From: Thermoanaerobacterium sp. DL9XJH110
GTDB lineage: Bacteria; Bacillota; Thermosediminibacteria; Thermosediminibacterales; Tepidanaerobacteraceae
Length of the DNA: 24,000 nt
Assembly (NCBI RefSeq): GCF_049310025.1
Contig: NZ_JBJYKD010000002.1
Span: forward strand, 67,351-91,350
Direction of reading: 5' to 3'
Made by a program: the position numbers and the translations under genes. Below are positions 1-21,446 of the stretch, piece after piece (the first letter of the stretch is position 1; every line of letters begins with the position of its first letter). The notes below the pieces were generated by a model. The model saw only the letters and a program-made list of their open reading frames with translations, was not told where the DNA came from and did not search any database.

Positions 1-918
1 CTTTCCAAATATACCAAATGAAGTATTGGCCAAAATATTGCCCAGGATTCTTTCTTCGTGGACAAATACACCTCTCTTTTCTCCCGGCTGGTTTTTTCGA
101 CCCGGCGTTATTGAGATTACTTTAGCCCGTATAATTTCACCTTCACCCACTTCAATGGCCCTGCCCGTATCGGCATCGGATATTATATGGCCCAGCGCAC
201 CGTAAAACCCCGTGCCGGGGTCGTAAAAAGTTAACGTCCCTACTCCTGCCGCGATATCTCTAACCCACAGACCCAACTGGTAAACACCCGTATTACTTTT
301 GACAGCACTGAGTTTGGTTTCAAAGACGCTGTCGTTTCTCTTGACGGAAAGGGTTACAACCCTGTCGCCATCTTCGTTGACCACTTTGGACATATCTTCT
401 GCCTGAAATATTTTTTTATTATTTACCATATATATTACATCGCCGACTTGAATACCGGCTTCCTGGGCAGGGTAATGTCTTTGTCCATTTTGGTCTATTA
501 CCGACGCCAGGCCGACGACTATTACCCCGTTGGGCCTGAGTTTCACTCCGACGGAATGTCCGCCGGGAACCACCCTTATTTCGGGCAATACGTGTACCTG
601 CATTTTTTTAACGGGTATAATTCCCAAAAACCTGAATTCCAGGTTGTAGGTCCCGGTTTTGGAAGAATGCAATATCAGCGGATTTTTCAGGTTAACGGTA
701 AGTCTTTTTTCAGGAGAAAAGCCGTTTATCGTCAAATATCCTTTTTGTCTGCATGATAGATTAAAGGTCAAAGGCACATTTAGCTCAATTCTCTGTTCCC
801 TGCCCTCCAAAATTCGAATCTCAGCGGGAAAGTCATAAAAACTGTAAAAATCAAGGGCAAATGCCGCAATTATTATTCCCAGAGCTATTAAGATGCCCAG
901 GGTTTTTTTGGCTCTCAT
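1..918 (-). CDS. spoIVB: SpoIVB peptidase (S55 family), N-terminal part; the 3' end runs off the window
   Basis: I translated the minus strand by hand from ATG 916-918, and it stays open to position 1: MRAKKTLGILIALGIIIAAF (signal anchor)...GIQVGDVIYMVNNKKI (PDZ-like)...GVGTLTFYDPGTGFYGALGHIISD (SpoIVB catalytic-His region). An in-frame TTG at 927 with GGAG 8 nt upstream is an alternative start. The gene sits directly downstream of recN, as in B. subtilis. It is missing from the ORF track because it is truncated by the window edge. Confidence 0.85.
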   Translation of the reverse strand, partial: MRAKKTLGILIALGIIIAAFALDFYSFYDFPAEIRILEGREQRIELNVPLTFNLSCRQKGYLTINGFSPEKRLTVNLKNPLILHSSKTGTYNLEFRFLGIIPVKKMQVHVLPEIRVVPGGHSVGVKLRPNGVIVVGLASVIDQNGQRHYPAQEAGIQVGDVIYMVNNKKIFQAEDMSKVVNEDGDRVVTLSVKRNDSVFETKLSAVKSNTGVYQLGLWVRDIAAGVGTLTFYDPGTGFYGALGHIISDADTGRAIEVGEGEIIRAKVISITPGRKNQPGEKRGVFVHEERILGNILANTSFGIFGK

Positions 919-1023
919 ATTTTGCAAGATGTTCACTCCCTGTTCTTAATAAAAAATGGGGTCTGAAAAATAAGATAACCTTTCTGTATGTTTTTATACC
1001 GCTGAGGGTAAAGCAAATTTTAC

Positions 1024-1051
1024 AAAAAAAAATAAGCCATAATAGGCTTAT
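1024..1051 (-). terminator. Weak rho-independent terminator after recN, overlapping its stop codon
   Basis: On the minus strand: ATAAGCC-tattat-GGCTTAT (7-bp stem, 1032-1038/1045-1051) followed by a run of about 9 T (A-run 1024-1031 on plus). The stem is short and AT-rich, so confidence is moderate. Confidence 0.5.
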
Positions 1052-2775
1052 CGAGCGTTTTTTATATTGTCGGCCAACTTTAGCATTTCCCTGGCGTGAG
1101 CCAGCGTGTTGCCGGTTATTTCGGCTCCACCCAGCATTCGAGCCAGTTCGTTTACCCTGTCTTGACCCCTGATTTCCGAAACTCTGGTATATGTTTTTCC
1201 TCCCAGAGTTTCCTTTTTTATTAAAAAATGAGCGTCTCCAAGGCTGGCAATTTGCGGGGAGTGGGTTACGCATAATACCTGATGACTTTTTGCTATCCTT
1301 GACAGCTTCTCCCCCACAATCTGAGCTGTCCTTCCACCGATGCCCGCATCAATTTCGTCAAATATAAGGCAGGGTATATTGTCGACTTTCGCCATTATAT
1401 TTTTTAACGCCAGCATTATCCGGGATGCTTCGCCGCCCGAAACAATTTTTGCCAGTGGCTTTAGCGGTTCTCCGGGGTTTGTGGATATTAAAAATTCCAC
1501 CCGGTCAAACCCGTCTCTTGTTATTTTATATCTCCTGCCGTTTACTTCTAACCCCGAATCGTCTTCTTCCCACTTAAAGTTAACTGCAAATTGAATTCCC
1601 TTCATGCCCAGATCCTGTAATTCTTTAGAAATATCGCGTTCCAACCTGGCAGCTGTCTTTTTTCTTGAATTATGCAGGGCTAGAGCCTTCTCAACAAGAG
1701 ATTTGTTGGTAATTTTTAACTCTTCCTCCAATTCTGCGATTTCGTCATCGATATTTAAAACATCATCCAGTCTTGCCGCAGCTTCTTCCTTATACTTCAA
1801 CAACTCCTCAATGCTCATGTTGTACTTTGCCTTTAGCCTGTCCAGCAATTCCAGTCTTGATTGTATCTCGTTTAACATTTCCGGGTCAAATTCCACGGAT
1901 TCCTTGTAATTTCTGATGGCCGACGCTGCGTCCTGGAGCTCGTAAAGCATGTTTCTTAAAGTCTCGGAAAGAGAGTCTGCGGGTTTAAAATATTTTTTTA
2001 TTTCTTCCAGATGGCTTATTATTTTGCCCAGATTATCTATAATCGAAGGGGCTTCATCCCCAACATATAATAAGGAATATGCGAGCTCCAGTGCCGCAAA
2101 AATCTTCCCGGCGTTTTCCAGCACCCGCCTTTTTTCTTCCAGTTCCTCATCTTCACCGGGTGTTAAACGGGCTTTTTCTATTTCGTCTATTTCATATTTT
2201 AATATATCTTTATGTCGGCGGAGTTCCTCGCGTTTTTTAACCAGGTCCTCTACTCTTCCAGCAAAGGTTCGTGACAGTTCATAAATCCGGGTTACATCCT
2301 CTTTTGCCGTTAAAACCTCTTCTCCGCCCAGCAGATCAAGAAGTTTCATGTGAGTCTCGCTTTCCAGCAGCGATTGATGCTGGTGCTGGCCGTGAATGTC
2401 AATTAAATATCTCCCCAGTTTTTTAAGGACCGAAACCGGTACACTTCTGCCGTTGGCCCTGCAATAGTTCCGGCCCTGTTCGGTTATTTCCCTGGTTATG
2501 ATAATTAAGCCGTCTTCCGCCTCGATTCCATACTCTTTAAGCAAATCCCCCAAGGCTTCGCCGTCGCAATCAAAAACGGCTTCCACCACGGCACTTTGCT
2601 TTCCGGTTCTGATGTATTCGCTGGAGGCCCTTTCCCCGATTATCATATTCACGGCATCTATTATTATTGATTTGCCGGCCCCCGTTTCTCCGGTTAAAAT
2701 ATTCAACCCGCCCTTAAAATCGATCTCCAGGTCATCTATCAAAGCGAAATCTTTGATATGGAGTTTAAGGAGCAT
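1048..2775 (-). CDS. recN: DNA repair protein RecN
   Basis: 575-aa ORF with Walker A GETGAGKS near the N-terminus, a long coiled-coil middle, and the C-terminal SMC signature VSGGEASRIMLALK plus Walker B LIFDEIDAGIGG. GGAGG lies upstream of ATG 2775. Confidence 0.97.
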   Translation of the reverse strand: MLLKLHIKDFALIDDLEIDFKGGLNILTGETGAGKSIIIDAVNMIIGERASSEYIRTGKQSAVVEAVFDCDGEALGDLLKEYGIEAEDGLIIITREITEQGRNYCRANGRSVPVSVLKKLGRYLIDIHGQHQHQSLLESETHMKLLDLLGGEEVLTAKEDVTRIYELSRTFAGRVEDLVKKREELRRHKDILKYEIDEIEKARLTPGEDEELEEKRRVLENAGKIFAALELAYSLLYVGDEAPSIIDNLGKIISHLEEIKKYFKPADSLSETLRNMLYELQDAASAIRNYKESVEFDPEMLNEIQSRLELLDRLKAKYNMSIEELLKYKEEAAARLDDVLNIDDEIAELEEELKITNKSLVEKALALHNSRKKTAARLERDISKELQDLGMKGIQFAVNFKWEEDDSGLEVNGRRYKITRDGFDRVEFLISTNPGEPLKPLAKIVSGGEASRIMLALKNIMAKVDNIPCLIFDEIDAGIGGRTAQIVGEKLSRIAKSHQVLCVTHSPQIASLGDAHFLIKKETLGGKTYTRVSEIRGQDRVNELARMLGGAEITGNTLAHAREMLKLADNIKNAR

Positions 2776-2787
2776 GGAGCCGCCTCC

Positions 2788-3234
2788 TTATCTCATGATG
2801 TTTTCAAACTTTTCCATTATCTCTTTGACGGCCGCTTTTGACCTGGCTATTACCAATATGGTGTTGTCCCCCGCAATGGTGCCTATTATTTCTCGCCAAT
2901 TGAGGCCGTCAATGGCTTCCGCGGCGGCTGATGCAGTCCCCGACAATGTCTTTATGACGATGAGGTTCTCAGAAGATTCCATGCCTATTATAGATTCTTT
3001 AAACATTCTGAGAAGCTTATCTGAGATAAAAGATGTTCTCTCGGGTTCAGCATAGCAATAATGTTCATTGTCCCTTAAAACTTTTATCAGCCTCAATTCT
3101 TTTATATCCCTGGAGACCGTCGCCTGAGTGACATTGAAGCCCTGTTTTCTAAGTTCTTCGGCCAATTCCTCCTGAGTCTCGATGGGCTTTTCTTTAATTA
3201 TTTCTCTGATTTTCATATGTCTCTTGGCTTTCAA
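2788..3234 (-). CDS. argR: Arginine repressor ArgR/AhrC
   Basis: 148 aa. N-terminal winged helix [30 protein letters not shown]-terminal oligomerisation/arginine-binding motif [14 protein letters not shown] start at 3234 has GGAGGAGGTGG just upstream. Confidence 0.95.
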
Positions 3235-3263
3235 GTATCCACCTCCTCCGGCTTAAAAATTCA

Positions 3264-4127
3264 TCAATCATTGAGACTGCTTTCCGTCAGCTTTTTTCTC
3301 AATACATCATAAAAACTTCTATTTTTTAACCTGATGAGTTTGGTATAGCAATCGGATTTCTTTACTACCACTTCATCGCCGGGAAGCAGTTTATATCCCT
3401 GCTGTCCGTCTACCGTCAGCATGATATCTGGATTTTCAGCCACTACCTGCACTTTTATGATATCATCCTTTGAAAGCACGATAGAACGGCTCTGAAGGGT
3501 ATGGGGGCATATGGGAGTCAGCAACAAGACCTCCACATTTGGATTAATAATAGGGCCTCCGGCGGAGAGGGAATAGGCCGTGGAACCCGTCGGCGTAGAA
3601 ATTATCAAACCGTCTGAAGGATAGGTATCGATATAGGCGCCGTTGGCGGTGGTCTTCAGCCGAACCAGCCTTGCAAAAGGGCCCTTGGTCACCACCACGT
3701 CATTTAAAGCTAGAAATCCGGCCAGCTGGCGGCCTTCCCTAATCACATTGGCTTCAATCATCATCCGCGTATCAATAAAATATTTTTTTGATTTTAACCG
3801 CTCCAGATCAACGTATAAATCTGAAAGCTCTACTTCAGTCAAAAAGCCCAGGTGGCCGATATTGATCCCCAAAATGGGAACGCCGTAAGGCGCAAGCCGC
3901 CTGGCCACATTGAGTAATGTGCCGTCTCCGCCGAGGGTGACGGCCAGATCCACATCTTTTAACGGATCCTCAAAGCCTTTTGACAGATCGGGCATATCTA
4001 TGACTTTCGCAGCTTCTTCCGGCAGCAGTACATCGAACTTGTTCTCCAACAGCCAATGAACGATATTGCGGACGATGCCGGTGGAATTTTTTTTGGACAG
4101 GTTTGGAAATAAGCCCACCTTTGTCAT
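3264..4127 (-). CDS. nadK: NAD kinase
   Basis: 287 aa with the GGDGT motif (TLGGDGTLLN), NIGHLGFL and the STPTGSTAYSLSAGGPI motif. SD AGAGGTGA precedes ATG 4127. The start abuts the stop of the upstream gene (TAAATG). Confidence 0.95.
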   Translation of the reverse strand: MTKVGLFPNLSKKNSTGIVRNIVHWLLENKFDVLLPEEAAKVIDMPDLSKGFEDPLKDVDLAVTLGGDGTLLNVARRLAPYGVPILGINIGHLGFLTEVELSDLYVDLERLKSKKYFIDTRMMIEANVIREGRQLAGFLALNDVVVTKGPFARLVRLKTTANGAYIDTYPSDGLIISTPTGSTAYSLSAGGPIINPNVEVLLLTPICPHTLQSRSIVLSKDDIIKVQVVAENPDIMLTVDGQQGYKLLPGDEVVVKKSDCYTKLIRLKNRSFYDVLRKKLTESSLND

Positions 4128-4649
4128 TTAATCACCTCTTGTCAAAAACCCGACGATAAAACCTAATAACAGGATGCCTGCGTACCACACAAAGCGATGA
4201 AGTGAAATCAAAGTTTTCTTCTCAAGGATGGAGTATTCCACTTTTTTTATTTCTTCATTTTCCATATCCACAAGGAGCAAACCATCGGGCCTGTACACCA
4301 TATAATATTCCAGCAGTTGGCGGCGGGTAGCAGGAAATCTGGGTGAAGGGGCTTTTTCGCCGGTTTTAACTTCCGCCACATAAATCTTATTTCCCTTCTT
4401 TACTATAAAATCCGCCTTTACACTGGCCTTATAAGGTCTACCGTCAACCAGAAGGATATAGGATACCTCCTTTTGGAGGTCAATGACTTCAAAGCCCTGC
4501 TTCTCAAGCAATTTAGCAGCCCTGATTTCACTTTTTTTGGCCTTCCGGATCTTTCTTTTCAGTTTCGCTTTCCGAAGAAGATTTAAAATAACTACTGTAC
4601 AGGCCGCTCCCAGAACAGCCCAGAAAAAGCCCACAGCTACATGATCCAT
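4128..4649 (-). CDS. Hypothetical two-TM membrane protein with a PD-(D/E)xK (RecB/Cas4-like) nuclease-fold core
   Basis: 173 aa with SD AGAGGT 6 nt before ATG 4649. N-terminal TM (VAVGFFWAVLGAACTVVILNLL), then a Lys/Arg-rich stretch. The core reads ...KADFIVKKGNKIYVAEVKTG...TRRQLLEYY, i.e. D, ExK and QxxxY in the canonical order. C-terminal TM (FVWYAGILLLGFIVGFL). The coding call is solid; the function is inferred from the motif pattern only. Confidence 0.8.
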   Translation of the reverse strand: MDHVAVGFFWAVLGAACTVVILNLLRKAKLKRKIRKAKKSEIRAAKLLEKQGFEVIDLQKEVSYILLVDGRPYKASVKADFIVKKGNKIYVAEVKTGEKAPSPRFPATRRQLLEYYMVYRPDGLLLVDMENEEIKKVEYSILEKKTLISLHRFVWYAGILLLGFIVGFLTRGD

Positions 4650-4694
4650 TTCAAACCTCTTTTTTACTATTCTATAAAAAATTTAAAATTCCTC

Positions 4695-5495
4695 TCAAAA
4701 AAGTTCCATATGAGCTTCCCGGACAACCTTTTCTACATCGGGCAGCGAACAGGCCGGGCGTTTCTTAAACCAGGCCAGAAATTCTATATTGCCTTTAGGA
4801 CCTGTAATAGGCGAAAATGTAAGACCCCATACAAAAAAATTTACCTCACCTGCGCTGGAAAAAACGTTTGTTATTGATTTTACATGTAAGTCCCTGTCTT
4901 TGACAACACCCTTTTTCCCCACTTCCTCTTTGCCCACTTCAAATTGAGGTTTAATGAGAGTTATCAGATCTCCGTTGTCTTTTAATAAAGAATAAAACGG
5001 CTCGAATACCTTTGAAAGAGAAATAAAAGACAGGTCTGCGGTAATAACGTCAGCCAGTTCACCTATATCGTCAAACTTCAGATAGCGGGCGTTCTTTCGC
5101 TCCAAAACCATGACACGCGGGTCTTTTCTCAAACGGTAATCCAGCTGCCCGTATCCCACGTCCACCGCGAACACTTTTCTTGCTCCGTGTTTTAAAAGGC
5201 AATCGGTAAACCCCCCTGTAGAAGCTCCGGCATCTATGGCCACTTTTTCTTTAACATCGATACCAAAGGTGGACAGCGCCTTTTCCAATTTCAGGCCACC
5301 CCTGCTGACATAGGGGATGGTTTTCCCCTTGACGGAAATGGAACTTTCCGTGTCGACCATGGTACCGGGTTTATCCACCAGCCTGTCGCCCACATAAACA
5401 TTGCCTGCCATTATTTCCACTTTTGCTTTTTCCCTGCTTGGGAAAAAACCTTTTTTTACCAATAATACATCCAGTCTTTCTTTGCAGCCGTTCAC
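4695..5495 (-). CDS. tlyA: TlyA-family rRNA (cytidine-2'-O)-methyltransferase
   Basis: S4-like N-terminus (RLDVLLVKKGFFPSREKAKVEI) and FtsJ-type SAM motif AIDAGASTGGFTDCLL. The track ORF starts at GTG 5507, inside the SD and overlapping the upstream TGA. I prefer GTG 5495, which has GGAGGTGA about 8 nt upstream. Either start is possible. Confidence 0.9.
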   Translation of the reverse strand: MNGCKERLDVLLVKKGFFPSREKAKVEIMAGNVYVGDRLVDKPGTMVDTESSISVKGKTIPYVSRGGLKLEKALSTFGIDVKEKVAIDAGASTGGFTDCLLKHGARKVFAVDVGYGQLDYRLRKDPRVMVLERKNARYLKFDDIGELADVITADLSFISLSKVFEPFYSLLKDNGDLITLIKPQFEVGKEEVGKKGVVKDRDLHVKSITNVFSSAGEVNFFVWGLTFSPITGPKGNIEFLAWFKKRPACSLPDVEKVVREAHMELF

Positions 5496-5503
5496 CCTAT
5501 AAT

Positions 5504-6151
5504 TCACCTCCTGGACGTATCTCTTTTTCCGCTTATACCGGCAAGGATGTCAAATCCAAGTCGCTGCTTTATCGTGAAAACGACCAGGGCCACGTTATGC
5601 ACAACTTTTTTTGAATTATTTATGGCAATCCCTTTGCCGATGGCCTTGCCGCCTATGGTAAGGGTAGATATAATTCCAGCCATTAAAATGCTCAGTGCCG
5701 TTTCATTTATATGTTTTGCCATTGCAAGAGCCTTTAACACAATTGCCGCCCCCGCCGCGCCGCTCAGGATACCACAGATATCTCCAACCACGTCGTTGCA
5801 GAAATTTGAAACTATGTCGGCGTTTCTTATAAGCTTAACGGCTTCTTTGCCTCCGGGCACCCTGTCGGCCGCCATGGCATGAAACGGTGTTTCGCTGGCT
5901 GAGGTAACGGCTATACCTATTATATCAAAGATTATGCCGATGGCAATTATGACCAGTAAAACGAAAATTGAAATAAATATATTAAATCTATCCATTAACG
6001 TTTCCGATATAAAACTAAAAAAAACGGATAACACAAAAGCCAGCAAGAACACCCTGTATACCCATCTGGCTTTTATGCTCCCGTTATTCTCAAAGTTTTT
6101 TCTCCTATTCGTCATCTCATGTTTATTTTTTTTTCGCGAATCGGAGTTCAA
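5504..6151 (-). CDS. oapA: OapA-like (OLE-associated protein A) four-TM membrane protein
   Basis: The track ORF (262 aa, to 6292) extends into the structured RNA. I trimmed it to TTG 6149-6151, with SD GGAGGG (6158-6163) 6 nt upstream. ATG 6115 is an alternative but has no SD. The protein has a basic N-terminus followed by four hydrophobic helices (WVYRVFLLAFVLSVFFSFI; IFISIFVLLVIIAIGIIFDIIGIAV; VVGDICGILSGAAGAAIVL; ALSILMAGIISTLTIGGKAIG). Its position directly downstream of the OLE-like RNA is the defining context of oapA. Confidence 0.75.
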   Translation of the reverse strand: MNSDSRKKNKHEMTNRRKNFENNGSIKARWVYRVFLLAFVLSVFFSFISETLMDRFNIFISIFVLLVIIAIGIIFDIIGIAVTSASETPFHAMAADRVPGGKEAVKLIRNADIVSNFCNDVVGDICGILSGAAGAAIVLKALAMAKHINETALSILMAGIISTLTIGGKAIGKGIAINNSKKVVHNVALVVFTIKQRLGFDILAGISGKRDTSRR

Positions 6152-6176
6152 ATTTTTCCCTCCGGTATTTTTATCC

Positions 6177-6785
6177 GAAAACAGGTGGTAGTGAATTGAG
6201 TAAATTTTGTGGCTTAGGTCTAGCTGGATTTCCCAGGCAGACATCCCATCGTCGCCGACAGGACGGTTCCCCTTTAAGTCTGCCTCTGCCATGTTGCCAC
6301 TGGCAGGGCTAGATTACCACTTAGTCCACACTGTAATCCTCAATTCACTTCCTTACGGAACAGTCTAGGAGCTTTCCTCACCAAAATCACTCTTCTCCTA
6401 GCCTCTTTTGCAAAAAGGGTTTCAAAGGGTATTCTCCGGAAACTGAATCGGCCAATTCAATTTCCGGCCCAATGCCTTTTTCCACCCTTTCCGCTCAAGG
6501 CAGGCTACACTGCACCCAACATCTAATCGAATGCAGGTTAACCCCCCAAGCCGTAACTCAAAATCAACAATCTTGTGTCACGAACTTGGGTCTCCACGGG
6601 AGTAGGGTCAACGCCTACATGCCATTGTAGATCGCCCCATCTCCCTTACTCCCAGCACCAACCCCCGACTGGGCGTCGGCAGCCAGCACCAGGAACTTCA
6701 TCGATGTGCCCTCGACGGATTTTTAGCCCCGCCTTCAGAGAAGCGATTTTGACTAGAATACTGCACCACCTGTTTTCAAGATTCG
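6177..6785 (-). ncRNA. OLE (ornate, large, extremophilic) RNA candidate, about 600 nt
   Basis: This is a ~650-nt gap in an otherwise tightly packed operon, with no SD-led ORF. A perfect 13-bp long-range helix closes it: 6177-6189 (GAAAACAGGTGGT) is the exact reverse complement of 6765-6777. Nested helices are visible: 6191-6200/6339-6348 (10 bp), 6365-6371/6395-6401 (7 bp), 6436-6442/6461-6467 with inner 6444-6448/6455-6459, and 6598-6607/6643-6653 (10 bp with one bulge). The size and the ispA-RNA-membrane protein-tlyA-nadK-argR-recN context match the published OLE locus. The ends are approximate: the 5' end is inferred from the promoter, the 3' end from the closing helix. Confidence 0.8.
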
Positions 6786-6791
6786 AAGTTT

Positions 6792-6820
6792 ATTATAGCA
6801 CAAAAGATACTCCGCTTCAA
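6792..6820 (-). promoter_or_regulatory. Near-consensus sigma-A promoter with extended -10, driving the OLE-like RNA and oapA
   Basis: Minus strand: TTGAAG (6815-6820), 17-nt spacer, TGcTATAAT (-10 hexamer 6792-6797). The predicted start is near 6785, about 8 nt before the 5' arm of the closing helix. Confidence 0.6.
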
Positions 6821-6949
6821 ATCCCCCGCCGGCCGCTACAAACCAAAAAAGATTGCCTTGCGAGATTAAAGAAGATTATGCACAAGTAATATTCTAAAGC
6901 TATTTATTGATATTTACTTTTAGGCCGCACCGGTTGACAGTAAAATGTT

Positions 6950-7858
6950 CTAGTATTGCCTGCTTACAAAAAAGTCTACCAGCTGTACAAAAAAATCGCT
7001 GTTTTCATACGCCGAAATTAAATCTTTGGCTTCCGCTGAGAGTCTTTCAACCAGTTCAACCGACCTGTCCAAACCGTAAATGTGCGGAAAGGTGCTCTTT
7101 TTGTTTCTCAGATCGCTGCCCACGGGTTTGCCCAGCAGTTTTTCATCACCTTTTAAATCCAGAATATCGTCCACTATTTGAAAAATCAAACCCACCTTCT
7201 CACCATAATCTTCCATGATTTTCAGGTCATCGGCAGACGCTCCCGCCAGCCGGGCGCCGGACCAGAGTGAAACCTGTATCAAACATCCGGTTTTATGAAG
7301 GTCCATATAAAATAATGTTTTTTCATCAATCATCTCACCCGATGACTCTATATCCACCACCTGACCTCCAACCATGCCGTAACTGCCGGCCGCTGTGGAA
7401 ACCTTTTCGATGACGTCTATGACGGCTGACGGAGACACGCCTTCTATATGGGAGTTTTGTGCTATAACCAGAAAGGCATGGGTCAACAGGGCGTCTCCCG
7501 CCAGCAAAGCTATGGCATCCCCAAAGACCTTATGGCAGGTGAGTTTACCCCGCCTGTAATCGTCATTGTCCATCACCGGCAGGTCGTCGTGTATCAGAGA
7601 GTAGGTATGTATCATCTCTATGCCGCAGGCTGTCGGCAGGACCTTTTCATACGGCAAACCGAAAAGCTTTGCCGCCTCGATTACCATGATGGGCCTGATG
7701 CGTTTTCCGCCGGCCATGGCGCTGTACCGCATGGCCCTGTGGATTTTTTGGGGAAAAGTATCTTCTCGCGGAAGGTAGTGGTCCAGGGCGGACTCAATTA
7801 TCCTTGCCTTTTCTGTCAGACTGCGTTCAAATTCATTCAATTTTTTCCTGCCCTCCAT
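6950..7858 (-). CDS. ispA: Farnesyl/geranyl diphosphate synthase (polyprenyl synthetase family)
   Basis: First Asp-rich motif LIHDDLPVMDNDDYRRG, second motif FQIVDDILD, and GGKRIRP near the N-terminus. The start is ambiguous. I chose ATG 7858 (MEGRKKLNEF..., 26-nt overlap with xseB) because the N-terminal length resembles B. subtilis IspA. ATG 7885 (AAGGA 5 nt upstream) is the track start. Confidence 0.92.
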   Translation of the reverse strand: MEGRKKLNEFERSLTEKARIIESALDHYLPREDTFPQKIHRAMRYSAMAGGKRIRPIMVIEAAKLFGLPYEKVLPTACGIEMIHTYSLIHDDLPVMDNDDYRRGKLTCHKVFGDAIALLAGDALLTHAFLVIAQNSHIEGVSPSAVIDVIEKVSTAAGSYGMVGGQVVDIESSGEMIDEKTLFYMDLHKTGCLIQVSLWSGARLAGASADDLKIMEDYGEKVGLIFQIVDDILDLKGDEKLLGKPVGSDLRNKKSTFPHIYGLDRSVELVERLSAEAKDLISAYENSDFFVQLVDFFVSRQY

Positions 7859-8075
7859 CGTAGTCTTTAAATACCAGGTTCCCATTTAAGTCCTTCATAA
7901 GAATCTCAATTTTACCTTCGGCTTCATCCAAAATTTTTGAGCATATCTTTGTCAGTGCTATGCCTTCTTCAAAAAGCGTCAGAGCCTCTTCCAGCGTCAA
8001 ATTCCCTTTTTCCAGCCGTTCAATAATCTGTTCCAGACGATTTATGGCTTCTTCGTATTTATATTTGGATGCCAC
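7833..8075 (-). CDS. xseB: Exodeoxyribonuclease VII small subunit
   Basis: 80 aa with typical XseB helices (YEEAINRLEQIIERLEKGNLTLEEALTLFEEGIAL). It overlaps the 3' end of xseA. Confidence 0.95.
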   Translation of the reverse strand: MASKYKYEEAINRLEQIIERLEKGNLTLEEALTLFEEGIALTKICSKILDEAEGKIEILMKDLNGNLVFKDYDGGQEKIE

Positions 8076-16256: not shown

Positions 16257-16673
16257 CTACTCGTTTTCTTCCACTTCGTCTACATTGATGGTTTGCCTGC
16301 AATTGGGGCATTCGGCTTTTCCGTCTTTTCCTACCAGGTCTTCGTCGATATAAACCGTTTCATGGCAATTGGGGCATTCAATTTCAATGAAATCTCCCTC
16401 GTCGAAATCATAATCGTCATAATCTTCATCGTCAAAATCCTCTTCTTCCCCGTCTCCGTAAACATCTTCTTCGAGCTCTTCCAGATCTTCATCGAGGCTT
16501 TCGAGGTATTCCTGAGTTTCATCTGCCCTGGCTTCAAGGTCGTCTACAACCCCGGCCATTTCATCAAGGACGTTGATAATTTCCATCATCAGCCTTTTTT
16601 CTTTGGAATCTTCAAGCCCCAAACCATCTGCAAGCCCTCGGACATAAGAAATCCTTTCTTTAAGTTCGCTCAT
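16257..16673 (-). CDS. Acidic zinc-ribbon protein (CD1247 N-terminal-domain-like), function unknown
   Basis: 138 aa: a helical N-terminal domain, then an extreme D/E-rich linker (EEDVYGDGEEEDFDDEDYDDYDFDEGD), then CPNC...17 aa...CPNC. SD AAGGAGG. It lies between efp and spoIIIAA. Confidence 0.85.
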   Translation of the reverse strand: MSELKERISYVRGLADGLGLEDSKEKRLMMEIINVLDEMAGVVDDLEARADETQEYLESLDEDLEELEEDVYGDGEEEDFDDEDYDDYDFDEGDFIEIECPNCHETVYIDEDLVGKDGKAECPNCRQTINVDEVEENE

Positions 16674-18357: not shown

Positions 18358-18387
18358 CTCCAACCCCCCTGCTTTCAAAAACTTCTT

Positions 18388-18746
18388 TTACAGCCAAAGC
18401 GGCGGTTCGTACGCCTTGCCTTCCAGTCCTCACACAGCACTCTGACCCGTAACGGTGATTCTCCAGAATTCTTCTAGGGCAAATATTTCACTCAAGCGAA
18501 CTTACCAGCGGGAATGTTCCCTTCCAGGGCATCTCCGATAGCCATGCTATAGTGAGTATATCCTGCCGCGTTTATTATTATTCCATCATAATTTTCCATG
18601 CACTTTTGGCTTTCGTCTACTGGGCTTCCCTTATTGTGGATTGAAACAAGCCCACCGAGATACCCATGGTCGCAGCCTTTCATCCATTTCACACAAAAAA
18701 ACTCACAAATTATATTACCATATTTTTCACTTTTTGAATAGGTCAA
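18388..18746 (-). pseudogene. aroQ: Decayed type II 3-dehydroquinate dehydratase
   Basis: Frame A (18746->18492) still reads ...[25 protein letters not shown], which matches the AroQ core (GIIINPGAYTHTS.A..DA...IP). The rest continues in another frame: [36 protein letters not shown], compare VEVHLSNIhAREEFRhhS...G.I.GlG..GY.LAL. Lesions: a frameshift near 18495, an in-frame TGA at 18430-18432, the motif His changed to Arg, and no room for the N-terminal ILVxNGPNLNxLG segment because the remnant starts at the aroK stop codon. Confidence 0.75.
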
Positions 18747-19536: not shown

Positions 19537-20424
19537 CTAATCATTGATACACTCCCTGGAATCTCTTTTTAAATTCCTGTTCACCACTTCGAACATGGAA
19601 CCCAAAGGAGGTTTCAGACCTGTCCATAGTCTGAATGCTTCTGCCCCCTGGTTGACAAGCATTCCAACCCCAGTTAGAATAGAACACCCCTTCTTTTCAG
19701 CAGTGTTCAGCAACCGGGTCTTCAGCGGGTTATAAATCACATCACAAACCAAAAGGTCGGGTCTCAATATGGTCTCGGCAACGGGCATTTCTTCAGTATT
19801 GGGATACATGCCCACCGATGTAGTATTTATTATCACCTGGCAGCTTTCTGCAGCCCGGCTCAATTCATGACTTTCCAGGGGTAGCGCTTCGGCCACTCCG
19901 TTTAAGATATTGTTTACATCGCGGGTCAAGGCTTCGGCTTTTTCAAAGGTGCGATTGGTTATAAAAATGTGTTTTGCACCTTCAAAGGCCAGAGTTACGG
20001 CCAGGCCCCGTGCGGCGCCTCCCGCCCCGATTATTAAAAAAGAGGCGTTTCTCGGGTCAATACCCCTTTCATTTCTCAAAGAGCGGATAAAGCCAGGACC
20101 GTCGGTATTGTAACCTATTATTTTATTATCTCTAACCACCAGAGTGTTTACCGCTCCTATAGCTTTGGCCAGCTCATCGATTTCGTCAATATATTTTATT
20201 ACTTCGGTCTTATAGGGCATAGTTACATTGGCGCCACAGAAGTTGTATACCGGCATATTTCTTACCGCCCTTTCCAAGTCTTCAGGTTTAATCTGGAAGG
20301 GCACATAAATAAAATCAATGCCGCATATTTCAAAGGCAGTATTTTGCATTAATGGTGAAAGTGTATGCCCCAGAGGATTGCCAAAAAGGCCCACGATTTT
20401 AGTATTTGCCGATGGGATTCTCAA
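19537..20424 (-). CDS. aroE: Shikimate 5-dehydrogenase (copy with host-like base composition)
   Basis: 295 aa with GLFGNPLGHTLSPLMQN, NVTMPYK, NTDG, GAGGAARG and NRT. TTG start has GGGAGG 8 nt upstream. Confidence 0.93.
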   Translation of the reverse strand: MRIPSANTKIVGLFGNPLGHTLSPLMQNTAFEICGIDFIYVPFQIKPEDLERAVRNMPVYNFCGANVTMPYKTEVIKYIDEIDELAKAIGAVNTLVVRDNKIIGYNTDGPGFIRSLRNERGIDPRNASFLIIGAGGAARGLAVTLAFEGAKHIFITNRTFEKAEALTRDVNNILNGVAEALPLESHELSRAAESCQVIINTTSVGMYPNTEEMPVAETILRPDLLVCDVIYNPLKTRLLNTAEKKGCSILTGVGMLVNQGAEAFRLWTGLKPPLGSMFEVVNRNLKRDSRECIND

Positions 20425-20523: not shown

Positions 20524-21405
20524 TTACAGACTCTCATAGTTTTTTTGCCTCTTTATAAGCTCCTTATTCACTATATCATATAATTTTTCAACGGGTGGTT
20601 CAATTCCAGTCCAAATTTTAAAAGATTCCACACCTTGATTAACCATCATTCCAACGCCTGTCAATATTTCACAACCTTTGCTTCGAGCTATTTGCAAAAG
20701 TTTAGTGTGTATGGGATTGTAAACTATGTCGCATACAATCATCTTCTTATGTATTACATCTTCATCTACAGGCACTGCGTTTATATCAGGATACATCCCC
20801 ACTTTTGTGGTATTAATCAAAATATCGACGTTATTATTTATTTTTTTAAGTTCATTAGATTCAAGTTTTATTGGAATGGCGCAATGTCTGATGTTATTTA
20901 TGTCTATTACCAGATCAACAGCTTTATTAAAAGTTCTATTAGCTATATATATATTGCCCGGTTCGCACATGGCCAGAGTTATAGCCACAGCCCTTGCAGC
21001 ACCGCCACAACCTAGTATCAATATATTTTTATTTTTAGGGTCCACCTTTTTCTCTTGCTTTAATGATCTAACAAAACCATCTCCATCTGTATTAAAGCCT
21101 TTAAGTTTATTATTTTCAAACTTTATTACATTAACTGCACCTATTAATCTCGCTTTATCATCTATTTCATCAAGGTATTTTATAATTGCTGTTTTAAATG
21201 GGGATGTAACATTACCGCCAATGAAATTTAAATACTTTATACTTTTTATTACATCCTCAAAATTCTCTGGTTTAACTTCAAAAGGAATATAAAGGTAATT
21301 CAAATTCAACATTTCAAAGGCCGAATTATGCATCATCGGTGAAAGCGTAAAAGACAGCGGATTCCCGAAAAGCCCCAAAAGTTTTGTATCTACAGAAATA
21401 TTCAT
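20524..21405 (-). CDS. Shikimate/quinate dehydrogenase-family paralog (AT-rich copy)
   Basis: It carries the same motif set (GLFGNPLSFTLSPMMHN, NVTSPFK, NTDG, GCGGAARA, NRT). By eye it is roughly half identical to the neighbouring aroE. I trimmed the track ORF (ATG 21420) to ATG 21405, which has GGAGG 8 nt upstream; both are in frame. Confidence 0.9.
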   Translation of the reverse strand: MNISVDTKLLGLFGNPLSFTLSPMMHNSAFEMLNLNYLYIPFEVKPENFEDVIKSIKYLNFIGGNVTSPFKTAIIKYLDEIDDKARLIGAVNVIKFENNKLKGFNTDGDGFVRSLKQEKKVDPKNKNILILGCGGAARAVAITLAMCEPGNIYIANRTFNKAVDLVIDINNIRHCAIPIKLESNELKKINNNVDILINTTKVGMYPDINAVPVDEDVIHKKMIVCDIVYNPIHTKLLQIARSKGCEILTGVGMMVNQGVESFKIWTGIEPPVEKLYDIVNKELIKRQKNYESL

Positions 21406-21446
21406 TTTATATTCCTCCATTCTTTTTATATTCCTCCATTCTTTTT
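21405..21446 (-). repeat. Tandem 19-nt direct duplication (about 2.2 copies) covering the SD and an upstream ATG of the aroE paralog
   Basis: Minus strand: AAAAAGAATGGAGGAATAT AAAAAGAATGGAGGAATAT AAAATG. The period is 19 and the two full copies are identical. Confidence 0.85.

Follow-up and report, generated by a model that had tools for sequence, protein, structure and literature searches.

The region between ispA and the gene for a small membrane protein in Thermoanaerobacterium sp. DL9XJH110 raises the question of what is encoded in a long gap within a gene cluster that is otherwise tightly packed. The locus lies on the minus strand of a 24,000-nt stretch of DNA (NCBI RefSeq assembly GCF_049310025.1, contig NZ_JBJYKD010000002.1, positions 67,351 to 91,350 of the forward strand), which was analyzed as a whole and is referred to here as the window; all coordinates given below are those of the window. 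A reading of the same DNA based on its letters alone (henceforth the sequence-only reading) had proposed a candidate OLE RNA at this place, in some 650 nt devoid of any open reading frame (ORF) led by a Shine-Dalgarno (SD) sequence. The non-coding gap proved to be real and longer than stated: 798 nt separate the ispA stop codon (6950) from the probable start codon of the downstream gene, oapA (TTG, 6151), and a structured RNA fills 617 nt of this interval. The remaining gaps in the operon, described by the same reading as mostly under 100 nt, measure 0-45 nt or are overlaps.

OLE RNAs have been described as molecules of ~600 nt that have the proteins OapA, OapB and OapC as partners and that are linked to ethanol, cold and Mg2+ phenotypes, with YbxF reported as a kink-turn (k-turn) binder (PMC12265935, PMC9723947, PMC3413148), in agreement with the background on which the sequence-only reading had drawn.

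The RNA between ispA and oapA matches the OLE family over its full length

To establish the identity of this RNA, we scanned the whole 24-kb window against Rfam 15. The OLE model (RF01071) matches 6785..6169 of the minus strand from end to end, spanning model positions 1-616 of 616, with a score of 551.8 bits (E 1.7e-159) against a curated gathering score of 50 bits, and OLE was the sole family above threshold in the scan of the window. The candidate put forward from the sequence alone is thus borne out, on the minus strand and as a full-length match. The window RNA agrees with the Rfam consensus at 240 of the 249 upper-case (highly conserved) positions and, in a set of 72 OLE sequences comprising the window RNA and 71 homologs, 138 positions are invariant and a further 101 are conserved in at least 90% of the sequences.

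The model segments corresponding to P7, P8, the long P9 and the end of P13 are all aligned in the window RNA without large deletions, which assigns it to the full-length OLE type rather than to variant 1 or variant 2 as these have been defined (PMC11332333). The two variants belong to the same family and share its conserved core with the window RNA, but their P7, P8 and P9 are short or missing and the OapB site at the end of P13 is often absent (PMC11332333), whereas the window RNA keeps all of these elements. Based on these results, 6785-6169 almost certainly corresponds to the ole gene and encodes a canonical full-length OLE RNA, and no evidence counts against the identification. The class is a known one, with 2,822 hits reported in Bacillota in GTDB (PMC11332333), and the window RNA is an ordinary member that brings nothing new beyond these ~2,800 catalogued examples. 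It resembles the OLE RNAs of Bacillus (Halalkalibacterium) halodurans and Clostridium acetobutylicum, the latter having been solved as a dimer by cryo-electron microscopy (cryo-EM; PMC12286853), in length, model match, conserved nucleotides and helices P1-P15, in its dimer-bridge loops, k-turn strands and P13 loop, and in the promoter near P1, the downstream oapA and the neighboring genes.

The predicted fold is supported by covariation

The minimum free energy (MFE) of the region is -274 kcal/mol, compared to -200 +/- 6 kcal/mol for dinucleotide shuffles (z = -11.6), and none of 20 shuffles folds as well. When the 158 consensus pairs of the Rfam structure were mapped onto the window RNA, 150 of them were standard pairs, as anticipated by the further nested helices that the sequence-only reading had listed. 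To assess whether these helices are maintained in evolution, we built a MAFFT alignment of the window RNA and 71 full-length homologs (51-87% identity) and analyzed the 171 pairs given by the Rfam structure together with the closing helix of the sequence-only reading. Standard pairs account for 85.7% of the pair cells, compared to 40-47% when the 3' partners are slid by 1-3 columns, a figure that is flattered by taking the structure from the family consensus. The counts of compensatory changes are independent of this choice: changes on both sides of the pair occur in 131 of the 171 pairs, compared to 103.3 +/- 3.0 in column shuffles, and none of 500 column shuffles reaches the observed values on any of five covariation measures. 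The helices, the closing helix included, therefore covary in homologous loci, and P1-P3 and all the helices annotated by Rfam are present in the window RNA with this support.

The first 52 nt are left unpaired in the Rfam model. P1, P2 and P3 are nevertheless drawn in the current published OLE consensus (PMC12265935), and P2 and P3, which are not in the model, are present and covarying in the window RNA. The perfect 13-bp closing helix noted previously is exact and corresponds to P1, with GAAAACAGGUGGU at 6777-6765 being the perfect complement of ACCACCUGUUUUC at 6189-6177, and two further G-U pairs (6779-6778 with 6176-6175) extend it to 15 contiguous pairs. At this length, however, the helix is not a family-wide feature, only its inner part of ~7 bp being so. 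Among the 72 sequences, the inner 7 pairs are paired in 76-99% and show GC to AU and UA to CG exchanges in either direction, whereas pairing at the outer 6 drops to 43-63%. A survey anchored on alignment columns gave a median contiguous P1 length of 7 bp for the family (range 0-16), which places the 15 bp of the window RNA near the top. The extension is compensated within the clade, reading UUGAAAAC/GUUUUCGG in the window, GGUGAAAC/GUUUCACC in the related locus L006 and AAGGGAAAC/GUUUCCCUU in L007, and these compensatory changes in the closest relatives indicate that it is real but lineage-variable.

For P2, 98-100% of the cells are paired and both-side changes occur in 6 of the 9 pairs. For P3/P3.1, both-side changes occur in 14 of the 16 pairs and 72% of the cells are paired; the P3 stem has been proposed to span the membrane (PMC12265935).

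The large structured RNAs GOLLD, ROOL, HEARO and the raiA motif are likewise highly structured, conserved and non-coding. Like OLE, GOLLD and ROOL assemble into RNA-only homo-oligomers (PMC12286853). The sequences and folds of all four are unrelated to OLE, however, and they have no membrane partner of the oapA type.

Landmarks for dimerization and protein binding

To determine whether the window RNA retains the elements to which the literature has assigned functions, we located each of them by sequence. All were found at the expected positions and in invariant or nearly invariant columns (Table 1), and the landmarks for the dimer bridges, the k-turn, the OapA palindromes and the P13 loop are thus intact at the level of sequence. 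In the cryo-EM structure (PMC12286853), the L4 loop forms dimer bridge B1 through A-A pairs (see also PMC12265935), the L5 and L6 loops form the intermolecular bridge B2, the GGCC of the P9 loop forms the kissing-loop bridge B3 (also PMC12265935), and the J6/7 segment is the second strand of the k-turn. The first strand is GAUGAAG; the k-turn is bound by OapC, and the AUCGAU of P4a that overlaps this strand is an OapA contact (PMC12265935, PMC9723947, PMC12286853); the OLE k-turn and OapC are also the subject of PMC9723947. The 5' strand of P2 (6753..6764) contains a CUAG palindrome, and a CUAG palindrome has been reported as one OapA contact region, the OapA sites lying in or near P2 and P4a (PMC12265935). 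The P13 loop region is the OapB site in B. halodurans (PMC12265935, PMC11332333).

The downstream gene encodes OapA

The sequence-only reading had taken the adjacent gene, which encodes a protein with four transmembrane segments, for oapA. Its 215-aa product presents four hydrophobic segments by hydropathy (~29-54, 55-87, 121-145 and 153-171), a basic N-terminal tail with 9 Lys or Arg among the first 30 residues, and the DxxxD motif (D120-VVG-D124) that distinguishes OapA from CNNM domains (PMC11332333). A search with this protein retrieved 566 relatives in bacterial contigs sampled at one genome per species, of which the best 80 were kept. The motif reads DVVGD in 68 and DVIGD in 12 of these 80 homologs, which upholds the assignment. 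The closest relatives are encoded in Tepidanaerobacteraceae and Thermosediminibacteraceae genomes (58-73% identity). Searches with the window RNA using nhmmer found OLE alongside oapA in all 80 kept loci, directly upstream of the gene in 78 of them.

Comparison with Pfam gave a match of OapA residues 65-192 to the CNNM domain (PF01595) with an E value of 2.2e-4 and 21.4 bits, below the cut-off of 28.4, and no CBS, CorC or other Pfam domain was found. No NCBIfam model matches OapA, and a PDB sequence search returned only matches at chance level, so that no solved structure was matched by sequence. The transporters MpfA, CorB and CNNM share this weak, sub-threshold similarity in the transmembrane domain, but the CBS and CorC domains are theirs; OapA, with 215 aa, has neither of them and is instead marked by DxxxD and by an RNA partner. 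The combination that defines MpfA/CNNM proteins (CNNM above the Pfam threshold, tandem CBS and CorC_HlyC) is therefore not found in it. A contig from run SRR36563509 (L081) is 99.6% identical to window positions 1-6633, and the gene caller there also gives a 215-aa OapA. A look-up of the exact OapA sequence gave no record, this contig being the sole near-match in public data. By its sequence, the downstream gene is a genuine oapA, whose product is distantly related to CNNM/DUF21 domains.

Promoter and ole-oapA junction

A consensus scan predicted a sigma-A-type promoter immediately upstream of ole, composed of a -35 element TTGAAG (6820-6815), a 17-nt spacer and an extended -10 element TGcTATAAT (TG 6800-6799, TATAAT 6797-6792), with a predicted transcription start at ~6785, a few nt ahead of P1. 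In 65 of the 72 loci, a comparable promoter is present upstream of the P1 core at a distance of no more than 90 nt, compared to 8.5% of 1440 control windows. In B. halodurans, the proximal ole promoter has been shown experimentally, with 5' ends near the start of P1 (PMC3413148). The 164-nt spacer between ispA and ole contains no terminator and no structure (z = +1.4), so that read-through from upstream is also possible. Likewise, no terminator was found between ole and oapA; the single terminator-like match on the minus strand belongs to P9, within the RNA itself. With a promoter of its own and no terminator on either side, ole could be transcribed alone or by read-through, and the arrangement of the sequence predicts that it is co-transcribed with oapA.

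The junction between the two genes is short. The oapA start lies 25 nt after the end of the P1 3' strand; measured from the end of inner P1, ~6 nt further upstream, the distance to the oapA start has a median of 34 nt, and roughly half of 69 related loci fall in the range of 21-30 nt. In the predicted fold, the OLE 3' region does not mask the oapA SD. In the window and across its clade, oapA appears to use TTG as its start codon behind a strong GGAGG SD, and TTG is the commonest oapA start among the 69 loci under a heuristic start call; with such a start, OapA may be made at a much lower level than an abundant RNA. Given the absence of a terminator and the short junction, the mature 3' end of OLE probably arises by processing.

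Two loci depart from this layout. In a metagenome-assembled genome (MAG) of an uncultured Peptococcaceae (L063:6001-7350), the order is ispA-oapA-OLE-tlyA, with OLE downstream of oapA, which is unusual for the family, and this OLE keeps a promoter-like site upstream. At L043:1786-2939, ~1.15 kb separate OLE from oapA, against the family median of 34 nt, and an insertion may exist there.

Table 1. Features of the ole locus, in window coordinates.
Feature	Position	Strand	Basis
ole, OLE RNA gene, full-length type, 617 nt	6169..6785	minus	RF01071 match, conserved positions, fold z, covariation
P1 5' strand UUGAAAACAGGUGGU	6765..6779	minus	pairs with 6189-6175
P1 3' strand ACCACCUGUUUUCGG	6175..6189	minus	complement of P1 5' strand
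P2 5' strand	6753..6764	minus	GCAG (6764-6761) with 6363-6360; UCUAG (6757-6753) with 6368-6364
P3/P3.1 5' strand, stem closing domain 1	6737..6752	minus	MFE pairs; partner 6398-6381
L4 A-rich loop CUAAAAAU	6719..6726	minus	C65 to A71 invariant in 72 sequences
P4a palindrome AUCGAU (at 6705) overlapping k-turn strand GAUGAAG (6702-6696)	6696..6705	minus	invariant or nearly invariant columns
L5 loop CGCCCAG	6669..6675	minus	G117-G122 invariant
L6 loop AAUGGCAUG	6618..6626	minus	A165-T172 invariant
J6/7 segment GUGGAGAC	6590..6597	minus	G196-G199 invariant
Palindromic GGCC in P9 terminal loop	6450..6453	minus	G338-C341 nearly invariant
P13 terminal loop GGCGAC	6251..6256	minus	aligned to conserved GGcgAC of the RF01071 model
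oapA, 215 aa, four-helix membrane protein	5504..6151	minus	TTG start 6151, SD GGAGGG 6163-6158
Proximal sigma-A-type ole promoter (predicted)	6792..6820	minus	consensus scan, 10/12 positions and TG
ispA (farnesyl diphosphate synthase), upstream neighbor	6950..7885	minus	PF00348 E 2.5e-57; NF045485 FPPsyn 354.5 bits

Gene cluster and host

Pfam and NCBIfam assignments place the following genes on the minus strand, in this order: tctBA, two aroE genes, aroK, a disrupted aroQ, pepP, efp, spoIIIAA-AH, two genes of the Asp23 family (yqhY-like), a DUF2273 gene, nusB, xseA, xseB, ispA, OLE, oapA, tlyA, a 173-aa ORF, nadK, argR and recN. A cluster of nusB, xseAB, ispA, tlyA, nadK, argR and recN, with yqhY-like genes, is the one described for OLE (PMC12265935), and the order of the OLE cluster genes is common to related loci, as seen in the synteny across the kept loci. 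Together with the domain assignments, this synteny confirms the canonical ispA-OLE-oapA arrangement within a nusB to recN operon that had been recognized from the sequence. The window differs from known OLE clusters in that dxs is absent from its oapA-tlyA stretch and in that a clade-specific ORF of 173 aa lies between tlyA and nadK; these two features and the long P1 are minor details specific to this instance.

The nearest OLE representative found (L001) is 87% identical to the window RNA, and the nearest relatives are Tepidanaerobacter, Thermosediminibacter, Thermovorax and Fervidicola. The genus label Thermoanaerobacterium is probably loose, since the phylogenetic neighbors are Tepidanaerobacteraceae. 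The window also holds the spoIIIAA-AH operon, which we counted in favor of a Bacillota host. We infer the physiology of the organism, which is probably a thermophilic, anaerobic and spore-forming member of the Bacillota.

The product of the 173-aa ORF (4128-4649, minus strand) is hydrophobic near both its N and its C terminus and contains D80...E93-x-K95, a motif characteristic of PD-(D/E)xK nucleases. It gave a weak match to Cas4 (E 7e-4) and no Pfam match at an E value of 0.001 or lower, and it is 100% identical to an NCBI protein entry from Thermoanaerobacterium sp. DL9XJH110. Its 1089 homologs are spread over several phyla, and a few of them are named PD-(D/E)XK nuclease or carry PF12705. 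Within OLE clusters, it was found only in the Tepidanaerobacter/Thermosediminibacter clade and in L070 and L072, with a weak match in L067. We considered it as a general gene of OLE clusters and rejected this, as it is present in only 15 of the 80 loci, and members of its family are widespread in lineages that do not carry OLE.

Several other features of the window were recorded. The aroQ gene (type II 3-dehydroquinate dehydratase, ~18379-18746, minus strand) is split over three frames (FQS... / ... / VRLSEIF...), with an 84-aa ORF giving a partial match, and represents either a frameshifted pseudogene or the outcome of sequencing errors. Beside it and aroK lie two tandem aroE (shikimate dehydrogenase) paralogs (19537-20424 and 20524-21420, minus strand). 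A 138-aa protein encoded between efp and spoIIIAA (16257-16673, minus strand) combines a CD1247 N-terminal domain with a C-terminal zinc ribbon of the MJ0042 type. Finally, comparison with L081 places the 5' part of spoIVB (Peptidase_S55) at positions 1-927 (minus strand); the gene continues beyond the left end of the window, and on L081 spo0A comes next.

Discussion

The evidence assembled above identifies the RNA with near certainty, and two other explanations of the same region have to be weighed against it. The mechanical ORF list contains two ORFs that touch the region (5504..6292 on the minus strand and 6575..6889 on the plus strand, 104 aa), and the region could accordingly be read as protein-coding, either through the oapA frame extended upstream to 6292 or through the plus-strand ORF. 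Translated searches with both do give similarity in close relatives, a result that we attribute to nucleotide conservation, but at least 80% of the query is covered in only 7 of 118 matches with the plus-strand ORF and in only 13 of 87 with the oapA extension. Among the 71 homologs, the longest open frame ranges from 46 to 178 aa and switches from one strand to the other, and the variation follows the pattern of base-pair covariation. Furthermore, the oapA extension has no SD, whereas TTG 6151 is preceded by GGAGGG 6 nt upstream, and the product called on the near-identical contig L081 is that of 215 aa. As the ORFs are not conserved as reading frames in the 71 homologs, the coding readings were rejected, and we accord them practically no chance of being right. 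It is also highly improbable, if a little less so, that the region acts mainly in cis as a 5' leader, of a riboswitch-like or protein-binding kind, that controls the translation or stability of the oapA mRNA and is not a free-standing RNA. The lack of a terminator before oapA, the start codon only 25 nt after P1, in a spacing that is commonly tight, and the clade-wide combination of a weak TTG start and a strong SD would all suit such a leader. Yet the SD is unsequestered in the predicted fold, and members of the family to which the 552-bit match assigns this RNA accumulate as a single stable species of ~600 nt that, in E. coli, acts with OapA produced in trans (PMC3413148, PMC12265935). A leader is moreover impossible at L063, where OLE lies downstream of oapA, and 617 nt with 25% near-invariant nucleotides far exceed known leaders.

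If the locus works as an OLE RNA gene, experience from other species outlines what its product would do. By analogy, processing of the ole-oapA transcript would set free a stable and abundant RNA of ~610 nt; two copies would form a homodimer through the conserved loops; OapA dimers, attached in the vicinity of P2 and P4a, would keep the RNA at the membrane or within it; and OapB and OapC, whose genes would lie elsewhere in the genome, would complete the particle. In other species, OLE has its own promoter, is stable and shows ethanol and cold phenotypes (PMC3413148), and it protects the cell from cold, from short-chain alcohols and excess Mg2+, and under poor carbon sources. OapA may be a bare CNNM-like transmembrane module without the CBS and CorC domains of MpfA-type Mg2+ transporters, for which the OLE RNA would supply the missing sensing or regulatory part, and the particle would then tune divalent-cation handling and the downstream responses to these same stresses. 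We hold this view of OapA, with the RNA standing in for CBS/CorC regulation, as a tentative one whose chances fall slightly short of even; it is suggested by the sub-threshold CNNM similarity and the missing domains, by the reported anticorrelation of MpfA with OLE and the structural similarity of OapA to CorB (PMC11332333), and by the Mg2+ phenotype (PMC12265935).

Pfam and NCBIfam assignments of the proteins encoded in the 24-kb window include neither oapB nor oapC, nor mpfA, and 8 of the 158 Rfam pairs are non-standard in the window RNA, a number that we rate as unremarkable. The genes oapB, oapC and mpfA are normally unlinked to ole; oapB encodes an OLE-binding protein of ~100 aa, and oapC is the gene of the ybxF/L7Ae family located between rpoC and rpsL. 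As for the mechanism, we know of no transport activity shown for OapA and of no OLE RNA for which a mechanism has been established. Both a ribozyme and a transmembrane RNA are still live hypotheses (PMC12265935), and the core activity of OLE could accordingly be catalytic, or the RNA could itself conduct ions, with OapA as a membrane anchor only. Size, conservation and structural complexity like those of known large ribozymes, including the 138 invariant and 101 nearly invariant positions, speak for this view, and both ideas have been raised in the field (PMC11332333, PMC12265935). On the other hand, OLE has not been seen to carry out a reaction, to splice or to cleave itself (PMC3413148), the dimer is without an evident active site in the available part of the cryo-EM report (PMC12286853), and the MpfA anticorrelation with its related Mg2+ phenotype favors a transporter-linked role (PMC11332333). 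We consider a catalytic or conducting RNA unlikely, and the transporter-like reading of OapA the better, if tentative, guide.

A more speculative proposal concerns the terminator-less junction itself, to which we attach a low probability in all its parts. The junction might be functionally important if the nascent ole-oapA transcript were brought to the membrane in cis by the co-translational insertion of OapA and the RNA were then freed by a cut in the linker. Under the same long-shot scenario, the cut would have to precede the adoption by domain 2 (the 5'/3' domain) of its extracytoplasmic position in the transmembrane model, and the membrane-anchored PD-(D/E)xK-like protein (4128-4649) would be a conjectural candidate for the processing nuclease. 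If this were true, the way in which OLE enters the membrane should be sought at the ole-oapA junction.

Among conserved bacterial RNAs whose biochemical function has yet to be established, OLE is one of the largest, and recent structures suggest that it may span the membrane (PMC12265935). The window contributes one more canonical member of this class, from a thermophilic, Tepidanaerobacteraceae-like organism. The survey around it provides family-wide measurements that can be reused, namely the promoter in 65 of 72 loci, the short ole-oapA junction, the frequent TTG start of oapA and one inverted locus. Furthermore, a thermophile ortholog with an unusually long P1 and intact motifs could suit structural work on the 5'/3' domain, a value that we regard as modest.

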